A stretch of DNA of 62,988 nucleotides, filler included, from a bacterium (GCA_040757115.1; 3 parts of 3 records of this genome joined end to end with filler, not necessarily neighbours in it); one strand, 5' to 3'; positions 14,219 to 59,281 are shown, counted from the whole stretch's first letter. The notes: generated by a model not told the origin, from the letters alone. Numbers and translations are program-made.

Positions 14219-15688
14219 ATGACTTATGATGTCGGAGAAAAAACTAAAAGAAGTATTTTTTGGGTAACTTCTGGTCGAATATGCAATTATATAATTGAAT
14301 TTGTTGGTGGGGTAATAGTCGCCCGGATTCTATTTCCTCAAGATTTTGGGATTATGGCAATTGCCATGATTTTTATTCACTTCGCACAACGATTGGGTGA
14401 ATTTGGTTTTAATGTCGCCTTAATTCAAAAAGAAAAAATTACACAGGACCACATTTTTACAATATTTATGATTAATTTTGGGATGGGAACCATCTTATGC
14501 CTTTCTCTGGTCGGAACTTCTCCTTTTATTGGGAAGTTCTACGATAATGACCTGGTAGGAAAGGTATTGGCTGTTGTTTCCATAGAGTTTATCTTGAGAG
14601 GTTTAGCAAGCACTCCTGTGGCATTGTTGCAGAGGGAACTCAAATATGGTCAACATTCTGCAATTTCTTTGATAAGTATAATTTTATCAACCGGAGTAAC
14701 TATTCTATTAGCCTTAGCTAATTTTGAAATCTGGAGTCTTGTATTTGGCAGATTAGCTGCAAGTGTTGCGGAAATTATTAGTATTATGATTATAACTAAA
14801 TGGATTCCAAAATTTAGGTATAAACATTGGGCAATGAAAGAAATGTTTTCTTTTGGTATATGGATGTTTTTGAGGGCTCAACTTGCTTATTTCCTTAGAA
14901 ATATAGACTATCTTATTATTAGTAAAAGGCTGGGCGTTGTCCCGTTAGGTTTTTATGAAAGAGGAAATAACCTGGTCATTGCCTCTCAAAGACTAATTGG
15001 CATAGGTGTTCAGCAGGTAAGTTTTTCTTCGTTTTCCCGAATTCAAAAAGATAGTGAACTTTTGAAAAATACCTTTCAGAAAATATTAACAGGGCTCTCC
15101 CTCTATAACTATTCTATTTTAATAGGGATGTTTTTAGTTGCTCCTTCATTTATTCCTGTAGTCTATGGGGAAAAATGGATACCAACAATTTTACCTCTTC
15201 AAATTCTATGTTTCTCTGGTATCCCTCGCTCTTTAGAATTTTTAAGTAACTCATTTGCTACGGCCAAAGGAGACTTGAAAAAATTTACAGGAGTCCTGGC
15301 GATTCATTTTATCTTTTTATCTATCGCCTGTTTTATAGGGAGTTTTTATGGTATCATTGGAGTGGCTATTGGTGTAACTATCTCAAGCGTTTTCGTCTAT
15401 ATTCTTCTATTTAATTTCCTGATGCATCTTGGTGGGTTTAAATTAATGGATATTCTGTCACCGCAAATCCCTGCCTTAACCTATATTAGTATTATGGTAT
15501 TAGGGGTAAAATCATGGGAATTAATGATGAAAAACCTCTGGCAAATACAATCATTCCCTATGCTTATTTCCTCTATCCTTGTAGGAGGGATATTATATTT
15601 TGGCGCTTTATTTACGATAAGATTTAAACAGACGGAATTTTTAAGGCTGGAATTAATGACCAGGATTAAATCAGTTCTTAAAAGGTAA
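14219..15688 (+). CDS. Wzx-type polysaccharide flippase
   Basis: ARILFPQDFG, ALIQK, many transmembrane segments, 489 aa. Confidence 0.88.
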   Translation: MTYDVGEKTKRSIFWVTSGRICNYIIEFVGGVIVARILFPQDFGIMAIAMIFIHFAQRLGEFGFNVALIQKEKITQDHIFTIFMINFGMGTILCLSLVGTSPFIGKFYDNDLVGKVLAVVSIEFILRGLASTPVALLQRELKYGQHSAISLISIILSTGVTILLALANFEIWSLVFGRLAASVAEIISIMIITKWIPKFRYKHWAMKEMFSFGIWMFLRAQLAYFLRNIDYLIISKRLGVVPLGFYERGNNLVIASQRLIGIGVQQVSFSSFSRIQKDSELLKNTFQKILTGLSLYNYSILIGMFLVAPSFIPVVYGEKWIPTILPLQILCFSGIPRSLEFLSNSFATAKGDLKKFTGVLAIHFIFLSIACFIGSFYGIIGVAIGVTISSVFVYILLFNFLMHLGGFKLMDILSPQIPALTYISIMVLGVKSWELMMKNLWQIQSFPMLISSILVGGILYFGALFTIRFKQTEFLRLELMTRIKSVLKR

Positions 15689-16177
15689 CTATTCACCCTG
15701 TAGGAAAGTAGGAGAGTAGGGAAGTAGGAAAGGGAAAGAAAATGAATGAGAAGTTAGATGATTTTAGACAACTTGTAGTATGGCAAAAAAGCCATCATTT
15801 AGTGATAAGAATATACGAAATAACCAAAAACTTCCCAACTGAAGAAAAATATGGATTGGTGCAACAGATGTGCCCAGCGGCTGTTTCTATTCCAGCAAAT
15901 ATTGCAGAAGGTTTTAAGAAACAAGGCATAAAGAATAAGTTAAATGCCTATAATATAAGCCAAGGATCTCTTGAAGAACTAAGGTATTATCTAATTCTAT
16001 CTAAAGATCTTAATTATCTGCCAGATTTTCAATCCATTTGGGATATATCTGAAGAAGTGAGTAGGATGCTTATAGGTTTAATCAAATCAATTAAGAGTAA
16101 AATAGTATGAAGTATTTTCCCCTCTTCCTACTTCCTACTTTCCTACTTCCTACTTGCTTGGTATGCTGAATAGTTAC
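15685..16177. mobile_element. GTAA-ended element carrying an intact four-helix-bundle cassette
   Basis: GTAACTATTCA...TGAATAGTTAC; GTAGGAA array upstream and TTCCTAC array downstream of the ORF. Confidence 0.75.
15742..16110 (+). CDS. Four helix bundle protein (23S rRNA IVS protein family)
   Basis: FRQLVVWQK, FPTEEKYGLVQQ, SIPANIAEG, GSLEELRYYL. Confidence 0.92.
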   Translation: MNEKLDDFRQLVVWQKSHHLVIRIYEITKNFPTEEKYGLVQQMCPAAVSIPANIAEGFKKQGIKNKLNAYNISQGSLEELRYYLILSKDLNYLPDFQSIWDISEEVSRMLIGLIKSIKSKIV

Positions 16178-17724: not shown

Positions 17725-17783
17725 GTAACCGTTCAGGTAGTCCTTTACTGCACAGACGCTGTGTCTCTGCGGTGAACAGTTAC
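17725..17783. mobile_element. Collapsed GTAA-ended MITE between convergent genes
   Basis: GTAACCGTTCAGG...TGAACAGTTAC; ends match 47046-47291. Confidence 0.65.
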
Positions 17784-18568: not shown

Positions 18569-18630
18569 TTTTTTGTCTCCTTTTTATTTTACTCTATTTT
18601 CTATTAATTGTCAACCTTTTTATTTGAAAC

Positions 18631-18995
18631 GGGTGCGTGTAAAATTTATGGGTAACTATTTAGCCGTCTGAAGTAACGGTTAAATCAATTGAAAATCACA
18701 AAATTCCAAATCACAAATACCAAATTACAAATAAATTTCAATGACCAAAATTCAAAATTCCAAACAATACAGGAAAAAGATTTTTTCTTCAATTATTGAA
18801 AAATCTAAATAAATTCCTCTCGTTGTCATATAATCTTTGGAATTTGAAACTTATTTGGAAATTGGAATTTGGAATTTATTTGAGATTTGGTGCTTGGAAT
18901 TTGTAATTTTCGCATTGAATTTCATCTATTTCTTTATATCGGCAAAAAGATGAATATTCCTCAATATTTTTTACCCACAAATTTTACATACACCT
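18631..18995. mobile_element. MITE with GGGTG termini (IS256-like), copy 2
   Basis: Same termini as 11576-11960; flanks ATTTGAAAC / GTTTGAAAC; heptamer hairpin cargo with KKIFSSIIEKSK* remnant. Confidence 0.75.
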
Positions 18996-19073: not shown

Positions 19074-19550
19074 GTAACCGTTCAGGATATAACCACAGAG
19101 TCACAGAGAACACAGAGGGAATATATAACCACGAATGAACACAAATACAAAAAGATTTGTAGTGCGAGGCTTTAACCTCGCTTCTGGCAAGCAGGAAAGC
19201 GAACCTAATGGTTTTTGCAAAATTAACTTCCACTTTTCTGGAATACCATAAAATAAATTAAAAATCAAACATCAAAATGTAAAATTACAAATCAAAAATC
19301 AAAATATTCTCCAGCTACTTTGTTAATTTACAAGTATTTTTGCATTTTGCATTGTAATTTTGATATTTGCATTTTGATATTTACATTAAAGTTCTTCTTG
19401 CTATCGCTCTCCCCAAAAGAGGAACCTATTTATGAAAAAGCAATAAGGTTCGCACTACATTTATGGGATGTCAGAGGTTAATTCGTATCCATTTGTGGCT
19501 AATTTCCTTAATTCTCTGTGAACTCTGTGCCTCTGTGGCTGAACGCTTAC
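19074..19550. mobile_element. GTAA-ended MITE with 9-mer arms, REP doublet and nested insert
   Basis: GTAACCGTTCAG...CTGAACGCTTAC; flanks GAGTTTTT / AAGTTTTT; insert-free inverted copy at 41502-41748. Confidence 0.8.
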
Positions 19551-21365: not shown

Positions 21366-21569
21366 ATTTTGATTTTTGATTTGTAATTTTACATTTTGAT
21401 GTTTGATTTTTAATTTATTTTATGGTATTCCAGAAAAGTGGAAGTTAATTTTGCAAAAACCATAAGGTTCGCACTACATTTATCGAATGTCATAGGTTAC
21501 TTCGTGTCCATTTGTAGCTAATTTCTCTAATTCTCTGTGAACTCTGTGCCTCTGTGGCTGAATGCTTAC
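21366..21569. mobile_element. Right half of the 19074-type element, with the nested insert inverted
   Basis: GCAAAAACCAT|AAGGTTCGCACTAC junction; ends CTGAATGCTTAC. Confidence 0.7.
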
Positions 21570-41501: not shown

Positions 41502-41748
41502 GTAACCGTTAGGAATATAACCACAGAGGCACAGAGTTCACAGAGAATTAAGGAAAGTAGCCACAAATGGATACGAATTAACCTCTGACAACCCATAAAT
41601 GTAGTGCGAACCTTTAAGTTCGCCTTTTGGCTTGCCAGAAGCGAAGCTAACGCCTCGCACTACAAATCTTTTTGTATTTGTGTTCATTCGTGGTTATATA
41701 TTCCTTCTGTGTTCTCTGTGACTCTGTGGCTATATCCTGAACGGTTAC
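41502..41748. mobile_element. GTAA-ended MITE with 9-mer arms and an intact GTAG REP doublet
   Basis: GTAACCGTT...TGAACGGTTAC; GTAGTGCGAACC..GTTCGC and CCTCGCACTAC in inverted orientation. Confidence 0.8.
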
Positions 41749-44334: not shown

Positions 44335-46992
44335 TTATATTTCCCCCCAGTTCTTTCCCCAATGAATATCAATCTTTATTGGCACTAAAAATTGTCCTGC
44401 ACCCTCCATACACTCTTTAACTAAGCCACTTATTTCATCCAGATTTTCTTTTTTAACTTCAAAGATTAATTCATCATGAACCTGAAGAAGCATTTGGGCT
44501 TTTTGACGGTCTAATTTTTTATAAATGTTGAGCATGGCGATTTTAATCAAATCAGCACAAGAGCCTTGAATAGGCATATTAACTGCCTGGCGGTATGCAA
44601 ATTCACGCAATTGCCTGCTTTCAGAGTTGATTTCAGGTAAATATCGCTTTCTTCCCCACAAGGTTGAAACATATCCCTTTAGTTTTGCCTCCTCAATAGT
44701 TTTATCAATATAGCTTTTTACCCCGGGATACCTTTCAAAATAGCGACTAATTATCTCATTTGCCTGCGTTGGGCTAATCTTTAATTCCTGACTTAATCCA
44801 TAGGCACTCATCCCATAGGTAATGCCGAAATTAACAACCTTTGCGGCACGACGCATCTCAGGAGTAACCAAATCCGGGCTGCCACCAAATATTTCAATTG
44901 CTGTCTGAGTATGAATATCCTCATCATTGCGAAAGGCATTGATTAATCTTTCATCCAGGCTAATATGGGCTAAAAGCCGCAATTCTATCTGAGAATAATC
45001 CGCAGAAAGTAACAGGTAACCTTCATCCGCAATAAATGCCGCTCTTATTCGATTACCCAGTTCGGTGCGAATAGGAATATTTTGTAAATTAGGCTCGCTT
45101 GAGGTCAATCTTCCGGTTGCGGCAATCGTTTGATTATAAGAGGTATGAAGTCTATGGGTGATAGGATTGGTCAAGGATATTAATGCCTCAACATAGGTAG
45201 ATTTTAATTTGGATACCTCTCGATATTCCAGAAGTTTATCTGGCAATTCATGATAACAACTTAATTCCTTTAAAACCTGTTCATCAGTTGAAAATCCAGT
45301 TTTAGTTTTCTTTTTCACCGGCATTTTAAGTTTCTCAAATAATATAAATCCCAGCTGTTTGGGTGAATTAATATTAAATTCTGTTCCCGCAAGGATATAA
45401 ATCTCCTTTTCTAAATCATTCAACCTTTTGCCAAATTCTTGCGAAAGTTCTTTAAGATAATGAATGTCAATTTTGATACCATCCTGTTCCATCTGTGCCA
45501 GGACATCAACTAATGGCATCTCTATTTCTTCAAACAAAGAGATAAGATTTTCTTCATTTAATCTGAATCTTAGTATTTCATCACCTAGTCGATGTATAAA
45601 ATCTGCATTTGAGCAGGCATACTCTCCTACCTGCTGAATTTCTACAGCAGATATAGATGTTCCCTTAGCCATTATATCTTTAGCCGAGGGTTTAGTAATT
45701 CCATAATAATTTAAGATTATCTCTTCTAAATTATGTTTTGCCGTAGAATTTATAAGATAGGAAGCAATCATGGTGTCGAATTTTGTTCCTTTGAGTCTAA
45801 TTCCCTGATTAGTTAGAATAATTAGTTCATATTTAATATTTTGCCCAAGTTTCTTTGTATTCTTTGCTTCTAAAAAAGGTTTTAGTGCCTCCAGAACATA
45901 TTCCTTTTTTAACTGTGGGGGTGCTCCCGGATATTCATGTGCAATAGGAATATAGTATGCACAATAGGGTTTGAGGGAGATTGCAATTCCAACTATTTGA
46001 GCATTCATAGGATTTATAGCGGTAGTTACTAAATTAATACTAAATGAAGAGGTATTTTTCAGGGAATTTAGTAATATTTGAAACTTATCTTTATCCGCAA
46101 TTATATGATAGTCTCCTGACACCTCTTTTTTATACAGCCCAAGTTCTTTCAGGAGTTTTTTAAATTCTAATCTATTCAGTATTTCAAATACTTTTTCTTT
46201 GTCATAATCTTTTATTTTACAGGCTTCTAAATCTACCTCGATAGGAACATTGGTATCAAGCGTAACCAATTCTTTACTCATAATAGCACTTTGTGAGTGT
46301 CCGTTAATGTTTTCACGAAGGTTTTCATTAGAAACCTGATTAAGATTATTAAGTAAATTTTCTATGCCTCCAAACTGCTGGATGAGTTTAACTGCCGTTT
46401 TTTCGCCTACTCCTTTGATTCCTGGAATATTATCTGAGGTATCTCCAGACAGACCGAGGAGATCAATGATATTATGAGGTTGGACACCAAATTTTTCATT
46501 AACACCCTGAACATCATAAAGCACCGTTTCTGATAGCCCTTTTTTAGTTGCCAGGACCTTTATTTTATCATCCACAATTTGCAAAATATCCTTATCCCCG
46601 GAAACGACAACTATTTCATCTACCTCATTCTCATACCTTTTGGCTATTGTGCCAATAATATCATCTGCTTCATATTCACCCTTTGCAAATATGGGGATAT
46701 TAAATGCCGAGATGACCTCCATAATAAGTGACATCTGGGATTGCATTTCACCAGGCATCTTCTGTCGTTGAGCTTTATATTCAGGATATTTTTTATGTCT
46801 AAAGGTAGGGACTTTAGAATCAAACACAACTGCCAGGTATTCTGGCTTTTCTTCTTTGATTAATTTTAGGAGCATAATGGTGAAGCCGTAAACGGCATTG
46901 GTGGGTATGCCTGTAGAAGTTGATAATAACTTAATAGCATAAAACGCTCGATAGATTAAACTATGCCCATCTACTAAAAATAACCTTTTCAT
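44335..46992 (-). CDS. polA: DNA polymerase I
   Basis: LVDGHS, EADD, DYSQIELR, KVVNFG, QVHDEL; annotated TTG 47034 is the -35 box of the promoter at 47006-47034. Confidence 0.97.
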   Translation of the reverse strand: MKRLFLVDGHSLIYRAFYAIKLLSTSTGIPTNAVYGFTIMLLKLIKEEKPEYLAVVFDSKVPTFRHKKYPEYKAQRQKMPGEMQSQMSLIMEVISAFNIPIFAKGEYEADDIIGTIAKRYENEVDEIVVVSGDKDILQIVDDKIKVLATKKGLSETVLYDVQGVNEKFGVQPHNIIDLLGLSGDTSDNIPGIKGVGEKTAVKLIQQFGGIENLLNNLNQVSNENLRENINGHSQSAIMSKELVTLDTNVPIEVDLEACKIKDYDKEKVFEILNRLEFKKLLKELGLYKKEVSGDYHIIADKDKFQILLNSLKNTSSFSINLVTTAINPMNAQIVGIAISLKPYCAYYIPIAHEYPGAPPQLKKEYVLEALKPFLEAKNTKKLGQNIKYELIILTNQGIRLKGTKFDTMIASYLINSTAKHNLEEIILNYYGITKPSAKDIMAKGTSISAVEIQQVGEYACSNADFIHRLGDEILRFRLNEENLISLFEEIEMPLVDVLAQMEQDGIKIDIHYLKELSQEFGKRLNDLEKEIYILAGTEFNINSPKQLGFILFEKLKMPVKKKTKTGFSTDEQVLKELSCYHELPDKLLEYREVSKLKSTYVEALISLTNPITHRLHTSYNQTIAATGRLTSSEPNLQNIPIRTELGNRIRAAFIADEGYLLLSADYSQIELRLLAHISLDERLINAFRNDEDIHTQTAIEIFGGSPDLVTPEMRRAAKVVNFGITYGMSAYGLSQELKISPTQANEIISRYFERYPGVKSYIDKTIEEAKLKGYVSTLWGRKRYLPEINSESRQLREFAYRQAVNMPIQGSCADLIKIAMLNIYKKLDRQKAQMLLQVHDELIFEVKKENLDEISGLVKECMEGAGQFLVPIKIDIHWGKNWGEI

Positions 46993-47045
46993 TAAATTTA
47001 TTTCAATTTTACCATTTAATAAAGGTTCTGTCAATAGAAAAATTG

Positions 47046-47291
47046 GTAACCGTTCAGGTGGTAATTTACCGCAGAGACGCAGAGAAACAGAGAGGAAAAT
47101 ATCTTTTTTTTCGTGTTTTTCGCGTTTTTCGGTGTTTAAAAAGGCTTAAAAACAGTTAGTCAAAAGTCCGTATTAAAAGATTAATAAACAACGAAAGACC
47201 CGAAATGCACAAAAAAAAGGAAATTTCTGTCTCTGGTGAATAGATTTTAATTTTTTCTCTGCGTCTCTGTGTCTCTGCGGTGAACGGTTAC
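47046..47291. mobile_element. GTAA-ended MITE with nested 9-mer hairpins
   Basis: GTAACCGTTCAGG...TGAACGGTTAC; AAATTG on both sides; near-identical copy at 59048-59281. Confidence 0.8.
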
Positions 47292-47417
47292 AAATTGAAG
47301 ATGTGGCTATTTTTCTGTTGACAATTCTAATAGGTTATGATAACCTAAATAGGAAGTTAGGGGTGTGTGTAATAAAAGCAGGTAAAATTGGACACGCCCC
47401 CGAAGGTGAGATAAATT

Positions 47418-47627
47418 ATGAGCACTAAAATAGGTAATCCAGCGGATGTGGAGGGGATGTTTGAGGTAATAAAATTAATAGAGGAATTACGCGATATATT
47501 TCGGCAAACCGCTCCACTCCATATTCTCAATTCTCAACAAAAACAACAGGCAAAACAATTATTATCCACGGCTAAAAATATACTGGATAAGGTAGAAAAG
47601 TCCCTGTGCGGTTATAGCGATTATTAA
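47418..47627 (+). CDS. Small hypothetical protein
   Basis: Promoter TTGACA-17-TAACCT at 47318, AGGTG RBS, helical sequence; last codons come from a repeat. Confidence 0.55.
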   Translation: MSTKIGNPADVEGMFEVIKLIEELRDIFRQTAPLHILNSQQKQQAKQLLSTAKNILDKVEKSLCGYSDY

Positions 47628-47819
47628 CTGGAAGTCTACATAGGATAATACCCATAAATAAGGCATGAGAATAATCGTTCCGTTAGGAACATAATATCGG
47701 TAGGAATAGATAGACAAATCAATCAGTTCCGTAGGAACGATATATTGGTAGAAAATTTATGGAAAGCCATTTACCGATATATTGTCCCTATGGGACAATA
47801 TTTGTATGATATTTATTTC

Positions 47820-48034
47820 GTAACTATTCACCATTCACAATTTCTTCCCTAAATTTCCTTAATAATGGTGAATGGTGAATTGTCAATTGTGAATTGTGAA
47901 TTATCACTCTTCACGGTGTCAAGCAAACCTGGCCCAAGAGTTCGATGCACCGCTATAGCGCATCCAATGACTCTATTCGATAATTCATCAAATTTCACTT
48001 CGTGCTCTCCGTCCCCTTCGTGGTGAATAGTTAC
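47820..48034. mobile_element. GTAA-ended MITE with perfect 8-bp duplication
   Basis: TTTATTTC|GTAACTATTCACCA...TGGTGAATAGTTAC|TTTATTTC. Confidence 0.85.
47921..47998 (-). pseudogene. GxxExxY protein N-terminal fragment
   Basis: VKFDELSNRVIGCAIAVHRTLGPGLL, broken just before the ExxY motif. Confidence 0.8.
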
Positions 48035-48418
48035 TTTATTTCTACCGATATGTTGTCCCTATGGGACATTATAGCGGTTATTAACTGGAAGTCTACAGAG
48101 GATAATGCCCATAAATAAGGCAGGAGAATAATCGTTCCGTGAGGAACATAATATCGGTAGTCTTACCATGAGAATAATCGTTCCGTTAGGAACATAATAT
48201 CGGTAGGAATAGATAGACAAATCAATCAGTTCCGTAGGAACGATATATTGGTAGAATTAAAGAGATGGATGTTTGTTCAAAATCTTTCTTTTTTTCTGTG
48301 AATAGGCTGAAGGCGAAAGGCTTAAGGCTGAAGATTTTTTATCCTATATCCTTCAGTCTTCAGCCTACTTTTTACTTTCTCCTCCCTTTTATCCGTGCTC
48401 ATCCGTGTTAATCAGTGG

Positions 48419-49120
48419 CTAAACAGTTATCTCATCTCTAATTTGCTTCACTACTTTGATGGGATTTTCGGCGGCGATTATCGGTCTGCCAACCACGATA
48501 AAATTTGCTCCTGAGTCTATCGCCTGTTTTGCCGTTGCTATTCTTTTTTGGTCATCCAGGATACCGGCAGGTCTAATTCCTGGTGTAACAATAATAAAAT
48601 CTTGTCCACATTCCGTTCTAATCGCCTTAATCTCATGACTTGAGGCAACTACTCCATCAAGTCCTGATGATTTGGCTAACCTGGTTAAAGTAATCACTTC
48701 ATCATTCAAATCCTTTTCTATCCCAATTTCTTCAAGCACATCTGAATCTAAACTTGTCAGGATAGTTACTCCAATGACTAATGGTTTTGGTTGAAATTGT
48801 GCAAGTGTTTTAACTACACCTTGCATCATCTCCTTGCCGCCGAGGGTATGAATAGTGAACATAAAAATACCTATTTTAGCCACTATTTTTGTTGCAGAAA
48901 CCACCGTATTTGGAATATCGTGATATTTCAGGTCTAAAAATACCTTACCACCTTTGTCATGAACCATTTTAACCGCCTCAGGTCCTGCGGCTGTAAATAA
49001 CTGAGCCCCAACCTTAAAAATTGTAACATAATCTTTTAATTGGTTCACTAATTTTTCTGCGTCTTTCAAATTATCAACATCTAAGGCGACAATTAGCCGT
49101 TCTTCTGATTTTAGTTGCAT
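48419..49120 (-). CDS. pyrF: Orotidine 5'-phosphate decarboxylase
   Basis: IVALD, FLDLKYHDIPNTV, VTPGIR, VVGRPI. Confidence 0.97.
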   Translation of the reverse strand: MQLKSEERLIVALDVDNLKDAEKLVNQLKDYVTIFKVGAQLFTAAGPEAVKMVHDKGGKVFLDLKYHDIPNTVVSATKIVAKIGIFMFTIHTLGGKEMMQGVVKTLAQFQPKPLVIGVTILTSLDSDVLEEIGIEKDLNDEVITLTRLAKSSGLDGVVASSHEIKAIRTECGQDFIIVTPGIRPAGILDDQKRIATAKQAIDSGANFIVVGRPIIAAENPIKVVKQIRDEITV

Positions 49121-49165
49121 TATTACCCTTCCTTTTTTTCTCCTGGTCAGAGAAATCGGTCTAAC

Positions 49166-50053
49166 TTATTCGATTAGTCTGGCTTTTTTATTTTCTCTCA
49201 AATAATTTTCTATCCCTGCAATAATCTTTAACGGGACTTGCGGGTCAACGAAATTTGCCGTGCCGACTGCGACTGCGGTTGCTCCAGCAATGATGAATTC
49301 TAAGGCATCGGTGGTGTTCATAATTCCGCCCTGCCCAATAATGGGGACATGGACGGCCTTTGCGACCTCAAAGACCATTCGGAGTGCAATTGGTTTGATT
49401 GCTGGTCCGGACAACCCACCAGTAATATTAGCCAAAATAGGTTTTCGGGTATTAACATCAATCGCCATTCCCATGATAGTATTGATTAAAGAGATGGCAT
49501 CTGTGCCCGCATCTTCGGCGGCTCTGGCAATTACTTTTATATCCGTAACATTTGGAGATAGCTTGGTGATTAATGGAACTTTGCTCACCTGACGAACATT
49601 GCTTACCACTTGATATGTCAGGGAGGAATCCTGCCCAAATTCCAATCCCCCTTTTGCCACATTCGGACAGGAAATGTTAATCTCCAAACCATCTACTAAT
49701 CCATCTAACCTTCTGGCTAATTCAACATATTCCTCAACCGTCTTCCCGGCAATATTGGCAATCAGCGGGGTATCGAATTGCCGCAGGTAGGGTAATTTTT
49801 CCTTGATGAATTTTTCTACCCCGACATTTTCTAAACCAATGGCATTAAGCATTCCGCAGGGAGTTTCTACAATGCGAGGTGGAGGATTACCCTGGCGTGG
49901 GGCTAATGTAATTCCTTTACTCACAATTGCCCCGAGTTTATTTAAATCAATCAATTGAGCGTATTCCTCGCCATATCCAAATGTGCCGGAGGCAACCATC
50001 ACTGGATTTTTCATCTTTATACTGGCAATATTTACTGTTAAATCAGGGTTCAT
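49166..50053 (-). CDS. pyrD: Dihydroorotate dehydrogenase (class 1B catalytic subunit)
   Basis: [37 protein letters not shown] supports ATG 50053. Confidence 0.95.
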
Positions 50054-50131
50054 TCTTTTCTCCAATCGCCTATCCTCATGAAAAAATAGTTCACACCTTA
50101 TTTCTTCAATCCTGAACCTTCCCGAATAATC

Positions 50132-50342
50132 GCGACCGTTCAGGTGGTAATTTACCGCAGAGACGCAGAGGAACAGAGAAGACATAGAAATAAAGTAACT
50201 ATTCAGCCATTGATTAACACGAATTAGCACGGATAAAAAAATAAAATCAGTGTTTCATCTATGTCCATCTGTGGCTGAATAGTTACCAATAGATTTTAAT
50301 TTTTTTTCTCTGCGTCTCTGTGTCTCTGCGGTGAACAGTTAC
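50132..50342. mobile_element. GTAA-ended MITE in the folP 3' end, containing a second one at 50195-50286
   Basis: Perfect GAATAATC duplication at 50124-50131 and 50343-50350. Confidence 0.85.
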
Positions 50343-51543
50343 GAATAATCGCATCAAGCATAAGTGCTACTCGCCTGGCAGATTTAACATCATGCACGCG
50401 AAGGATATTTGCTCCATTTAATATCGAAATTGCCACTGTCGCCAGAGTCCCTTCTAATCGCTCTTCAACCGGTAAGTCCAGAATTTTACCAATAAACGAT
50501 TTTCGTGAAGTGCCAATTAAAATTGGTAAGCCAGGACTTTTGAATTCTCTTAATCTTCTTAAAATCTGTAGATTATGCTCCACCGTCTTCCCAAATCCTA
50601 TTCCGGGGTCGATAATAATCTTTTCTTTATCTATTCCAGAATCTTGAGCAAATTTAACTCTTTCTCTAAGATAAAGTATAATTTCAGAAACGACACATTT
50701 ATATTGAGGGTTTTCCTGCATATCTTGTGGTGTGCCTTGAATATGCATCAAGACAACAGGGACTTTATATCCAGCGACTACCTTTGCCATATTCATATCA
50801 AATTTTAAGGCACTAATATCATTAATGATATGTGCCCCTTCAGCCAAACAGGCTTTTGCGACCTCTGATTTATATGTATCTATGGAGAGCGGTAAATCAA
50901 TATTTTCTTTAATAAGCCTTTTTACGATTGGTATGAGTCTTTCTAATTCTTCTTTTACCGAAGACGGTTTGGCTCCCGGGCGTGTAGATTCCCCACCAAT
51001 ATCAATTATATCTGCCCCTTCTTCCTTCATCTCAAATGCCCTTTTAATAGCCTTTTCAGGTTCATCATATTGTCCACCATCTGAAAAAGAATCTGGCGTT
51101 ACATTTAAAATACCCATAATAAAAGTTCTTTGGGCAAGGTTAAATTGGTATTTTCCACAGACTAACTTGAAGTCATCCTTAATAAAATTATTTAATACCT
51201 CTTCAATCTTATCGGCGAGGTCAGATAGTCCAAAATATTGGGATTGAAGTTTGCTGATTAATCTTTGATAATGTTTTAAGCTACCTATGAGCAGGACATC
51301 TGTGGTTTTGCAGTTGAGAGAGATGGCGTCTTTAGTTAGAGCCGCCTCACCGCCGATGGAAAGCATTTCTTGTTTAAGGATAAGGGCAGGTTTTAGAGCA
51401 ACATCTTCTAATTTTATCACCCGGCATACTGCTTTTTTCGCCATTAAATCAATTCCTTTAGGGTCAACACTTATCTTTTTCATCTCATCACAGATTTGTT
51501 TTTCATTATAGATTTCTAAAACTCTGATTTTATAATCATTCAT
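50296..51543 (-). CDS. folP: Dihydropteroate synthase with N-terminal extension
   Basis: MGILNVTPDSFSDGG, GGESTRPG, DPGIGFGK, GTSRKSF, RVHDV. Confidence 0.95.
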   Translation of the reverse strand: MNDYKIRVLEIYNEKQICDEMKKISVDPKGIDLMAKKAVCRVIKLEDVALKPALILKQEMLSIGGEAALTKDAISLNCKTTDVLLIGSLKHYQRLISKLQSQYFGLSDLADKIEEVLNNFIKDDFKLVCGKYQFNLAQRTFIMGILNVTPDSFSDGGQYDEPEKAIKRAFEMKEEGADIIDIGGESTRPGAKPSSVKEELERLIPIVKRLIKENIDLPLSIDTYKSEVAKACLAEGAHIINDISALKFDMNMAKVVAGYKVPVVLMHIQGTPQDMQENPQYKCVVSEIILYLRERVKFAQDSGIDKEKIIIDPGIGFGKTVEHNLQILRRLREFKSPGLPILIGTSRKSFIGKILDLPVEERLEGTLATVAISILNGANILRVHDVKSARRVALMLDAIIRNCSPQRHRDAEKKN

Positions 51544-52485: not shown

Positions 52486-52664
52486 AATTTTCCCCTCCCG
52501 ATTAATTTTTAATTTTAAATCACCCAGATTGGTATTTTTTAGAAAGTTCTGCTATTCCACACGAAAAAAAAGATATTTTCCTCTCTGCGAACTCTTGCGT
52601 CTCTGCGGTAAAGGATTACCTGAACGGTTACGATTTAAGATATAGTCATTCTGGGTCATATAAG

Positions 52665-59047: not shown

Positions 59048-59281
59048 GTAACCGTTCAGGTAATCCTTTACCGCAGAGACGCAGAGAAACAGAGAGGAAA
59101 ATATCTTTTTTTCGCGTTTTTCGGTGTTTAAAAAGGCTTAAAAACAGTTAGTCGAAAATAAATATTAAAAGATTAATAAACAACGAAAGACCCGAAATGC
59201 ACAAAAAAGGAAATTTCTGTCTCTGGTGAATAGATTTTAATTTTTTCTCTGCGTCTCTGTGTCTGTGCGGTGAACGGTTAC
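59048..59281. mobile_element. GTAA-ended MITE, copy of 47046-47291
   Basis: Near-identical sequence and termini. Confidence 0.8.

Follow-up and report, generated by a model that had tools for sequence, protein, structure and literature searches.

Short repeats that begin with GTAA and are bounded by inverted ends punctuate a 62,988-nucleotide stretch of bacterial DNA (hereafter the window), which consists of contigs C409, C410 and C411 of one metagenome-assembled genome (MAG; G000), with runs of N between them. The host is an uncultured groundwater bacterium whose assembly comprises 4.32 Mb in 462 contigs, with 36.8% G+C. On C411, the units of main interest sit among housekeeping genes (Table 1), and every copy in the window is either intergenic or at one end of a protein-coding gene, the genes concerned being polA, pyrF, pyrD, a folP-type gene and a polysaccharide-synthesis gene; none is inside a 23S rRNA gene, the position expected of a 23S rRNA intervening sequence. 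In our assessment the GTAA-ended units are probably non-autonomous elements of the IS66 family of insertion sequences (IS), of the ISBst12 type. They would comprise miniature transposable elements with inverted repeats (MITEs) and gene-carrying cassettes, moved by an IS with the same termini.

The end pattern GTAANNNTTCA occurs 21 times on the two strands of the window, compared with 3.82 +/- 1.84 in shuffled sequence, and 0 of 100 shuffles reach 21. The abundance of GTAA-ended elements and solo ends described in an earlier, sequence-only reading of the window is thus borne out. Perfect 8-bp duplications were found around two units. That of the 47820-48034 unit (TTTATTTC) is exactly as the reading had described it; that of the 50132-50342 unit (GAATAATC) is indeed perfect, but it had been placed at 50132, which is the start of the element, and its left copy really occupies 50124-50131. 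The imperfect duplications it listed were also recovered, namely 7/8 positions for the unit at 19074-19550 (flanks GAGTTTTT/AAGTTTTT) and 6 bp (AAATTG) for the MITE at 47046-47291. Unit sizes had been given as 41 to 493 bp. The 493-bp unit exists (its 8-bp flanks agree at just 5/8 positions), but no 41-bp unit is present in the window, where the smallest measures 59 bp (17725-17783). Two kinds of cargo it named, an intact four-helix gene and a GxxExxY gene fragment, are found at 15742-16110 and, as a stub of ~25 codons, in 47820-48034. A third, another set of ends or "shell", corresponds to the nested unit at 50195-50286, which is real but does not represent a fresh insertion. In 7/8 genomic copies the 92-bp unit has an identical place and identical neighbours within one and the same outer unit, and therefore the composite has been copied as a whole; 50195-50286 within 50132-50342 is a fixed composite.

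Table 1 Positions of the GTAA-ended units, neighbouring genes and related elements (window coordinates unless a contig, locus or genome is named).
Feature	Location	Strand	Details
Gene-carrying unit, 493 bp	15685-16177	+	ends GTAACTATTCA / TGAATAGTTAC; inner arms of GTAGGAAA-type words
Four-helix-bundle gene, intact, 122 amino acids (aa)	15742-16110		inside unit 15685-16177; PF05635 6e-35; TIGR02436 114 bits
Minimal unit, 59 bp	17725-17783	+	two ends around CGCAGAG-type hairpin arms only
Unit, 477 bp	19074-19550	+	ends GTAACCGTTCAGG / GTAAGCGTTCAGCC; CACAGAG-word arms
Right-hand part of unit	21366..21569	+	cut off by start of contig C410
Unit, 246 bp	41503-41748	+	left end degenerate (GTAACCGTTAGG), right end intact
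polA	44335-47034	minus	C411
MITE, 246 bp, CCGCAGAG-arm family	47046-47291	+	12 bp upstream of the start of the polA open reading frame (ORF)
Small ORF, 69 aa	47418-47627		no family match
Target duplication TTTATTTC, left copy	47812-47819		perfect 8 bp
Chimeric MITE, 215 bp, family F5	47820-48034	+	14-nt perfect inverted repeat
Target duplication TTTATTTC, right copy	48035-48042		perfect 8 bp
pyrF	48419-49120		C411
pyrD	49166-50053		C411
Duplication GAATAATC, left copy	50124-50131		perfect 8 bp
Composite MITE, 211 bp	50132-50342	+	left end mutated (GCGACCGTTCA); in 3' end of folP-type gene
Nested unit, 92 bp, family F8	50195-50286	+	GTAACTATTCAGCCA ends; inside 50132-50342; no duplication of its own
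Duplication GAATAATC, right copy	50343-50350		perfect 8 bp
folP-type pterin-binding gene	50296-51543	minus	C411
Truncated unit	52560..52631	+	right end only (...CCTGAACGGTTAC); left limit approximate
MITE, 234 bp, CCGCAGAG-arm family	59048-59281	+	no matching duplication
Solo or truncated ends	21569, 34045, 37100, 52631, 58925		
IS66-family element, 1563 bp	G000:C198:3061-4623		GTAACCGTTCAGGTA at both ends
Intact relative, 468-aa gene in 1505-bp element	L008, in G007 (same-order relative)		ends GTAACCGTTCAC...GTGAACGGTTAC
Element with GTAACCGTTCACGGG ends	L028		record titled as Planctomycetota MAG
Element with GTAGCCGTTCACGG ends	L032		perfect 8-bp duplication GTTTAATC; record titled as Phycisphaerales MAG
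GTAA pair, 1942 bp	G000:C444:4176-6117		perfect duplication AAAAAATC; mosaic of repeats plus intact 343-aa Rpn/YhgA-like (PF04754) gene

Two units form part of adjacent coding sequences. The folP-type ORF crosses the duplicated GAATAATC and continues into the MITE at 50132-50342, from which the gene takes its stop codon and the 14-15 codons before it, an arrangement conserved in a same-genus genome (G001). The GTAA terminus (15685-15688) of the unit that carries the four-helix gene provides the TAA stop codon of the polysaccharide-synthesis gene at 14219-15688.

Across the whole assembly, 1780 GTAANNNTTCA ends were found, compared with 183 matches to the reversed pattern used as a control; the commonest variants are GTAACCGTTCA (601), GTAACTATTCA (415), GTAAGCGTTCA (241) and GTAACTGTTCA (105). 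Ends were paired like brackets, giving 442 units with a median size of 241 bp, and 438 of these pairs have enough flanking sequence for a duplication test. A perfect 8-bp duplication flanks 141/438 pairs, whereas 7-bp and 9-bp duplications were seen in 5 and 0 pairs, respectively, and none of 437 pairs is perfect in a control with flanks shifted by 8 bp. Targets reconstructed from 144 perfect cases are 75% A+T, with an A-rich first half and a T-rich second half. When a looser pattern was used, 446 pairs no longer than 900 bp were recovered, amounting to 116 kb or 2.7% of the assembly; these comprise 40 families of at least two members (350 members in all) and 96 singletons. Over the 1773 ends with sufficient sequence, information content stays high through position 13 and drops to approximately zero thereafter, with positions 1-4 and 8-11 set by the search pattern, and the shared terminus of ~13 nt reads GTAA(C/G)(C/T)(G/A)TTCA(G/C)(C/G).

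These ~13 terminal nucleotides are all that at least 40 families have in common. Every family inspected contains a hairpin, each arm of which repeats a short word of 7-9 nt in tandem, for example CGCAGAG, CACAGAG, CACGAAG, GTAGGAAA, GGAGATAA or ATTCACA. Genes, gene fragments, bare hairpins and nested units all occur between the ends, and as a description the "interchangeable cargo" of the sequence-only reading holds. Most GTAA-ended units are non-coding MITEs, being small and present in high copy number, with target duplications and inverted ends that are common to an IS. A minority are gene-carrying mobile insertion cassettes (MICs), in which IS-type ends surround a passenger gene (four-helix or GxxExxY) and no transposase.

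A cognate IS should carry the same ends around an IS66-type transposase gene. PF03050 (DDE_Tnp_IS66) matches six places in the genome, the best of which lies in C198, in an element filled by a single ORF. This 472-codon ORF scores 283.6 bits against NF033517 (IS66 family transposase; cut-off 180) and is a pseudogene with two in-frame stop codons; its three open pieces each have partial PF03050 matches and one also matches DUF6444. TnpB_IS66 (PF05717) has 0 matches in the genome. Matches to the C198 transposase protein were found in 14 of the 41 genomes searched, G000 included, and the intact relative at L008 likewise fills its element with one ORF. IS66-family elements with the same ends were found in four genomes, and that at L032 is bordered by an 8-bp duplication. 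For more distant relatives of the transposase (L030, L031, L034, L035 and L036), no GTAA-type or other ends were detected under the criteria used. A 2941-bp pair of ends on C68 was rejected as an autonomous element, since it contains ordinary metabolic genes and its ends are unrelated.

These features can be compared with published rules. IS66 inverted repeats begin with GTAAGCG and are accompanied by 8-bp direct repeats (PMC11946415). The ISBst12 group is defined by a single ORF without TnpA or TnpB accessory genes; its member ISDge4 from Deinococcus geothermalis, for which transposition was observed, has one 449-aa ORF, terminal inverted repeats GTGACTACTCAGCA / GTAACTGCTCAGCA and an 8-bp direct repeat (PMC12898284). 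With ISDge4 ends close to the GTAACTGTTCAGCC ends here, IS elements bearing the same ends and agreement with the published rules, assignment of the GTAA-ended units to the IS66 family, and within it to the single-transposase ISBst12 type, is well founded. The sequence-only reading had made its IS66 interpretation depend on the existence of IS66-type elements with these ends and on an excess of 8-bp duplications over chance. Both were found (the elements at C198, at L008 in G007 and at L032; 141/438 versus 0/437 pairs), and the interpretation is supported.

How the MITEs arose from such an IS is constrained by how little the two share. The C198 IS has at most 33 terminal bp in common with any MITE (4 matches) and the interiors are unrelated; therefore the MITEs are not products of internal deletion of the IS, and this origin is ruled out. 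In the preferred reading the units would be mobilised in trans: the DDE transposase of a 1.5-kb IS with the same termini would bind the ~13-nt ends and insert the unit at AT-rich sites via an 8-bp staggered cut, repair of which would leave the 8-bp duplication.

Insertion is shown directly by presence/absence polymorphism at orthologous and paralogous sites. The same-genus genome G001, in which flanking genes are 95-99% identical to those of G000, lacks the 47046-47291 unit in the region upstream of polA (G001:C19) and has a single AAATTG there; the sequence-only reading had proposed looking for such empty sites in related genomes. Conversely, a unit in G001 (GTAAGAGTTCAGG...CCTGAACGGTTAC) is flanked by the duplication ATTAAATC, and the corresponding G000 site is empty (window 15665-15672). 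The 47820-48034 unit sits within another repeat of ~246 bp (47612-47819 plus 48035-48072), of which at least 12 other full copies in G000 are uninterrupted, with contiguous flanks that overlap by exactly 8 bp; in the G001 copies the flanks are likewise contiguous with an 8-bp overlap. G001 also has the 50132-50342 element at the orthologous position, differing internally by one substitution; this element is older. At two further positions the genomes differ in other ways: G001 has ~173 bp in place of the 17725-17783 unit, and the left part of 19074-19550 is orthologous with a different interior. In three public runs compared over 46600-50700, contigs break at the repeats and no contig bridges an empty site.

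The interrupted ~246-bp repeat carries small hairpins of its own (TCCGTTAGGAAC..., TGTCCCTATGGGACA); the region concerned also takes in 48075-48250, and many copies are present in G001. The spacer between the 69-aa ORF and pyrF (47615-48330, compared with G001:C19, L023) holds different elements in the two genomes. In G001:C19 it contains one 240-bp CACAGAG-arm MITE, which abuts the small ORF and alters its 3' end.

Two gene types recur between the ends. When 26 PF05635 (four-helix) matches were examined for enclosing ends, 6 were found between paired ends (15685-16177 and five sister copies), 4 of them with perfect 8-bp duplications. Of 81 PF13366 (GxxExxY) matches, the best 66 were checked: paired ends enclose 26 of them, and a single end is close to another 21. 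Full GxxExxY genes are found in units of 459, 472 and 496-511 bp, while families of 292, 268 and 212 bp contain halves or stubs of the gene. The 47820-48034 unit illustrates how such parts are combined. Its positions 4-95 are an ATTCACA-word hairpin, 96.7% identical to the hairpin beside a four-helix gene on C31, and the remainder combines a CCACGAAG arm with the opening ~25 codons of a GxxExxY gene on the minus strand (47849-47998). The stub is up to 62% identical to full copies and, taken alone, falls below the family cut-offs. This unit is a chimera of a four-helix-side hairpin and a GxxExxY stub, and many MITE families appear to be deletion derivatives or chimeras of cassette-bearing units.

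As for distribution, the motif GTAACYRTTCA occurs at five or more times the control level in 19/24 same-phylum relatives (1285 matches in G001, 738 in G012 and 351 in G008), while each of 16 genomes outside the phylum has at most 14 matches.

Several observations weigh against assigning these units to mobilisation by an IS66-type transposase. The proven insertion at 47046-47291 duplicated 6 bp, not 8. The assembly contains no intact cognate transposase, the PF03050 matches being one pseudogene with two stops and five fragments, and a search of G001 for the C198 transposase returned merely a partial match of 30% identity; an unassembled copy is conceivable in G000, as the assembly breaks at repeats. 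Neither the C198 nor the L008 IS copy has a flanking duplication. Perfect duplications are present in just ~1/3 of pairs and are rare or missing in some families (4/43 in F3, 0/8 in F8, 0/6 in F11, 0/5 in F13 and 0/4 in F15). Even in F2, the youngest large family (98.2% identity), they flank merely 31/62 pairs; family F5, with a mean pairwise identity of 98.2%, has 14/19. The shortfall is partly due to nesting inside other units and partly to age, copies of F1 and F3 being ~86-87% identical, and erroneous joins in a metagenome assembled from short reads, or recombination among copies, may account for part of it. Ends are also concentrated near contig boundaries: the outermost 300 bp of contigs, which account for 6.4% of the assembly, contain 343/1780 ends (19%), and repeat mis-joins in the 462 contigs may distort both copy numbers and the pairing of flanks. 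Two further points concern the link between ends and cargo. None of 10 full GxxExxY genes in the relatives G003, G008 and G024 lies between both ends, and the arm words of several cassettes outside GTAA shells are multi-copy too, their 16-mers occurring 1 to 96 times. The shell is therefore not the sole route to hairpin amplification. The proposal that multi-copy cassettes are confined to shells was dropped, as arm words of shell-less cassettes occur tens of times.

The relationship between shell and cassette bears on where the interiors came from. In its full form a cassette consists of the hairpin arms enclosing a GxxExxY (PD-(D/E)XK-fold) or four-helix-bundle gene, and the commonest arm words mostly adjoin an end (308/374 occurrences of CCGCAGAGAC). 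It could be argued that a single ancestral unit, with IS66-type ends and a hairpin cassette, diversified in place through fast turnover of arm words, with arms kept complementary and genes lost, so that the interchangeability of the cargo would be illusory. In agreement with such an origin, most families have an arm that begins immediately after TTCA at one of the ends, all interiors have the same architecture, and two shells around one GxxExxY clade differ at end positions 6-7 only. We nevertheless consider it improbable. Two unrelated gene types are found inside shells, and nested and chimeric units show that material enters them. Most intact cassette genes lack GTAA ends, yet among the shell-less genes checked, tandem-word inverted arms of the same build flank 14/16 four-helix and 9/12 GxxExxY genes. 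A tree of 20 full GxxExxY proteins places the 8 members from shells in two well-supported clades with shell-less genes between them, and at least two changes are therefore forced. When the four-helix units are counted, there are at least three associations between a gene lineage and the ends.

In our view, MITE ends that already existed most probably received or enclosed cassettes on more than one occasion. A stronger form of this proposal, which we put forward tentatively and think somewhat doubtful, is that the hairpin cassettes are independent mobile DNA that has repeatedly settled between IS66-type MITE ends, each event founding a new family. If true, this would account for the fact that just 13 nt are common to at least 40 families.

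Two elements of other construction were noted in the same comparisons. In G001:C394 (L019), opposite window position ~50056, a 122-bp insertion lies directly at the pyrD start codon. It is made of GTAGAAAG-type words, lacks GTAAC ends and shows the same ~6-7 bp (TTCTCC) on either side, which gives it the look of a hairpin-word element that has moved with no IS66-type shell. A different MITE family is represented by a 375-bp unit at window 18621-18995, with inverted ends GGTGYRTGTAAAATTT and a direct repeat of ~9-10 bp, T(A/G)TTTGAAAC. Between its ends is a hairpin of tandem GGAATTT words, and G001 lacks the unit at the orthologous site; genome-wide, its family has 11 + 10 ends that form 7 pairs.

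An origin of mobility within the cassettes themselves was also weighed, in which cleavage at GTAAC...GTTAC would be carried out by the GxxExxY nuclease or by the four-helix protein, and the resemblance to IS66 ends would be a coincidence. Full-length genes of nuclease fold do lie between the ends, and the assembly is without an intact IS66 transposase. We regard this as very unlikely, since the same ends and 8-bp duplication surround GxxExxY, four-helix and gene-free units alike, most intact cassette genes here and 10/10 in relatives lack the ends, and IS66-family elements of four genomes possess them. A target duplication of fixed length is, moreover, the product of a DDE transposase. Still less credible is movement by another enzyme encoded in the genome, either an Rpn/YhgA-like Transposase_31 protein or a Y1 HUH transposase. 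The genome does hold four full-length PF04754 genes, one of them within the 1942-bp GTAA pair with its AAAAAATC duplication, and seven PF01797 (Y1 HUH) matches (e.g. C119:1846-2208 and C430:13423-13755). Just 1/4 of the PF04754 genes lies inside such ends, however, for which reason the unit was rejected as the driver, and that unit is a mosaic of other repeats; HUH transposition neither relies on inverted ends nor produces a duplication. Finally, chance motifs or an assembly artefact, suggested by the fragmented metagenome assembly, can be given almost no weight in view of the 21 window matches with 3.8 expected, the 10-fold lower reversed-pattern control, the specific length of the duplication and the presence of the same units at orthologous sites in an independent assembly.

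Non-autonomous IS66-family elements of the ISBst12 type thus remain the preferred reading, and these can be set beside known systems. Like ISDge4 and its group, the elements here are associated with one transposase ORF of about 450-470 aa without TnpA or TnpB, have short imperfect inverted ends (GTAACTGCTCAGCA compared with GTAACTGTTCAGCC-type) and make an 8-bp duplication; they differ in that nearly all copies are non-autonomous and that a pseudogene is the only copy of full length. Of the three main end variants here, GTAAGCG is the classical IS66 end (PMC11946415), and the others are GTAACCG and GTAACTA. MITEs and MICs moved by a cognate IS are an established concept (PMC3129680). The units share with that class their IS-type inverted ends, target duplication, lack of an own transposase and, in some copies, passenger genes. 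Here, by contrast, there are at least 40 families with ~13 nt of end in common, and the passengers are a repeat class of their own, tandem-word hairpin cassettes that also exist without the ends. A MIC with a cognate IS is exemplified by IS231-MIC231.

The GxxExxY and four-helix-bundle families are presumably best known from ORF-bearing 23S rRNA intervening sequences. Hairpin-armed cassettes with genes of the same families (TIGR04256, TIGR02436) between inverted tandem-word arms resemble those described here, with the difference that a subset here is also inside transposon ends and has been multiplied with 8-bp duplications. The units also resemble the repetitive extragenic palindromes of the REP/REPIN-RAYT systems in being abundant intergenic hairpin-forming repeats. 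REPINs are not known to have IS-type inverted ends or a target duplication, and RAYT is a Y1 HUH transposase, whereas the ends and the fixed 8-bp duplication here point to a DDE transposase and set the units apart from REPINs. Among the top matches of a literature search on IS66 with MITEs, no paper dealt with IS66-derived MITEs; in two of them IS66 appears only as an entry in a table, and the term IS66 is absent from a 2024 review of prokaryotic MITEs. The titles and abstracts of papers naming GxxExxY or related terms contain none on mobility. The elements are of a known kind, ordinary IS-driven MITEs, in an unusually diverse and cargo-rich form.

Their scale and variety are unusual, with paired units occupying ~2.7% of the genome and at least 40 families sharing a 13-nt terminus. 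With so little sequence in common, an ISBst12-type transposase is therefore implied to need little end sequence. The elements reshape housekeeping genes, as seen in the last codons and stop of the folP-type gene and the stop of the polysaccharide-synthesis gene. The copying of cassette genes inside shells, with 8-bp duplications, offers a specific and testable means by which these cassettes may multiply. Were the cassettes independent mobile DNA, one parasite would be riding on another's non-autonomous ends, and genes of the type found in 23S rRNA intervening sequences would gain a documented route of spread.

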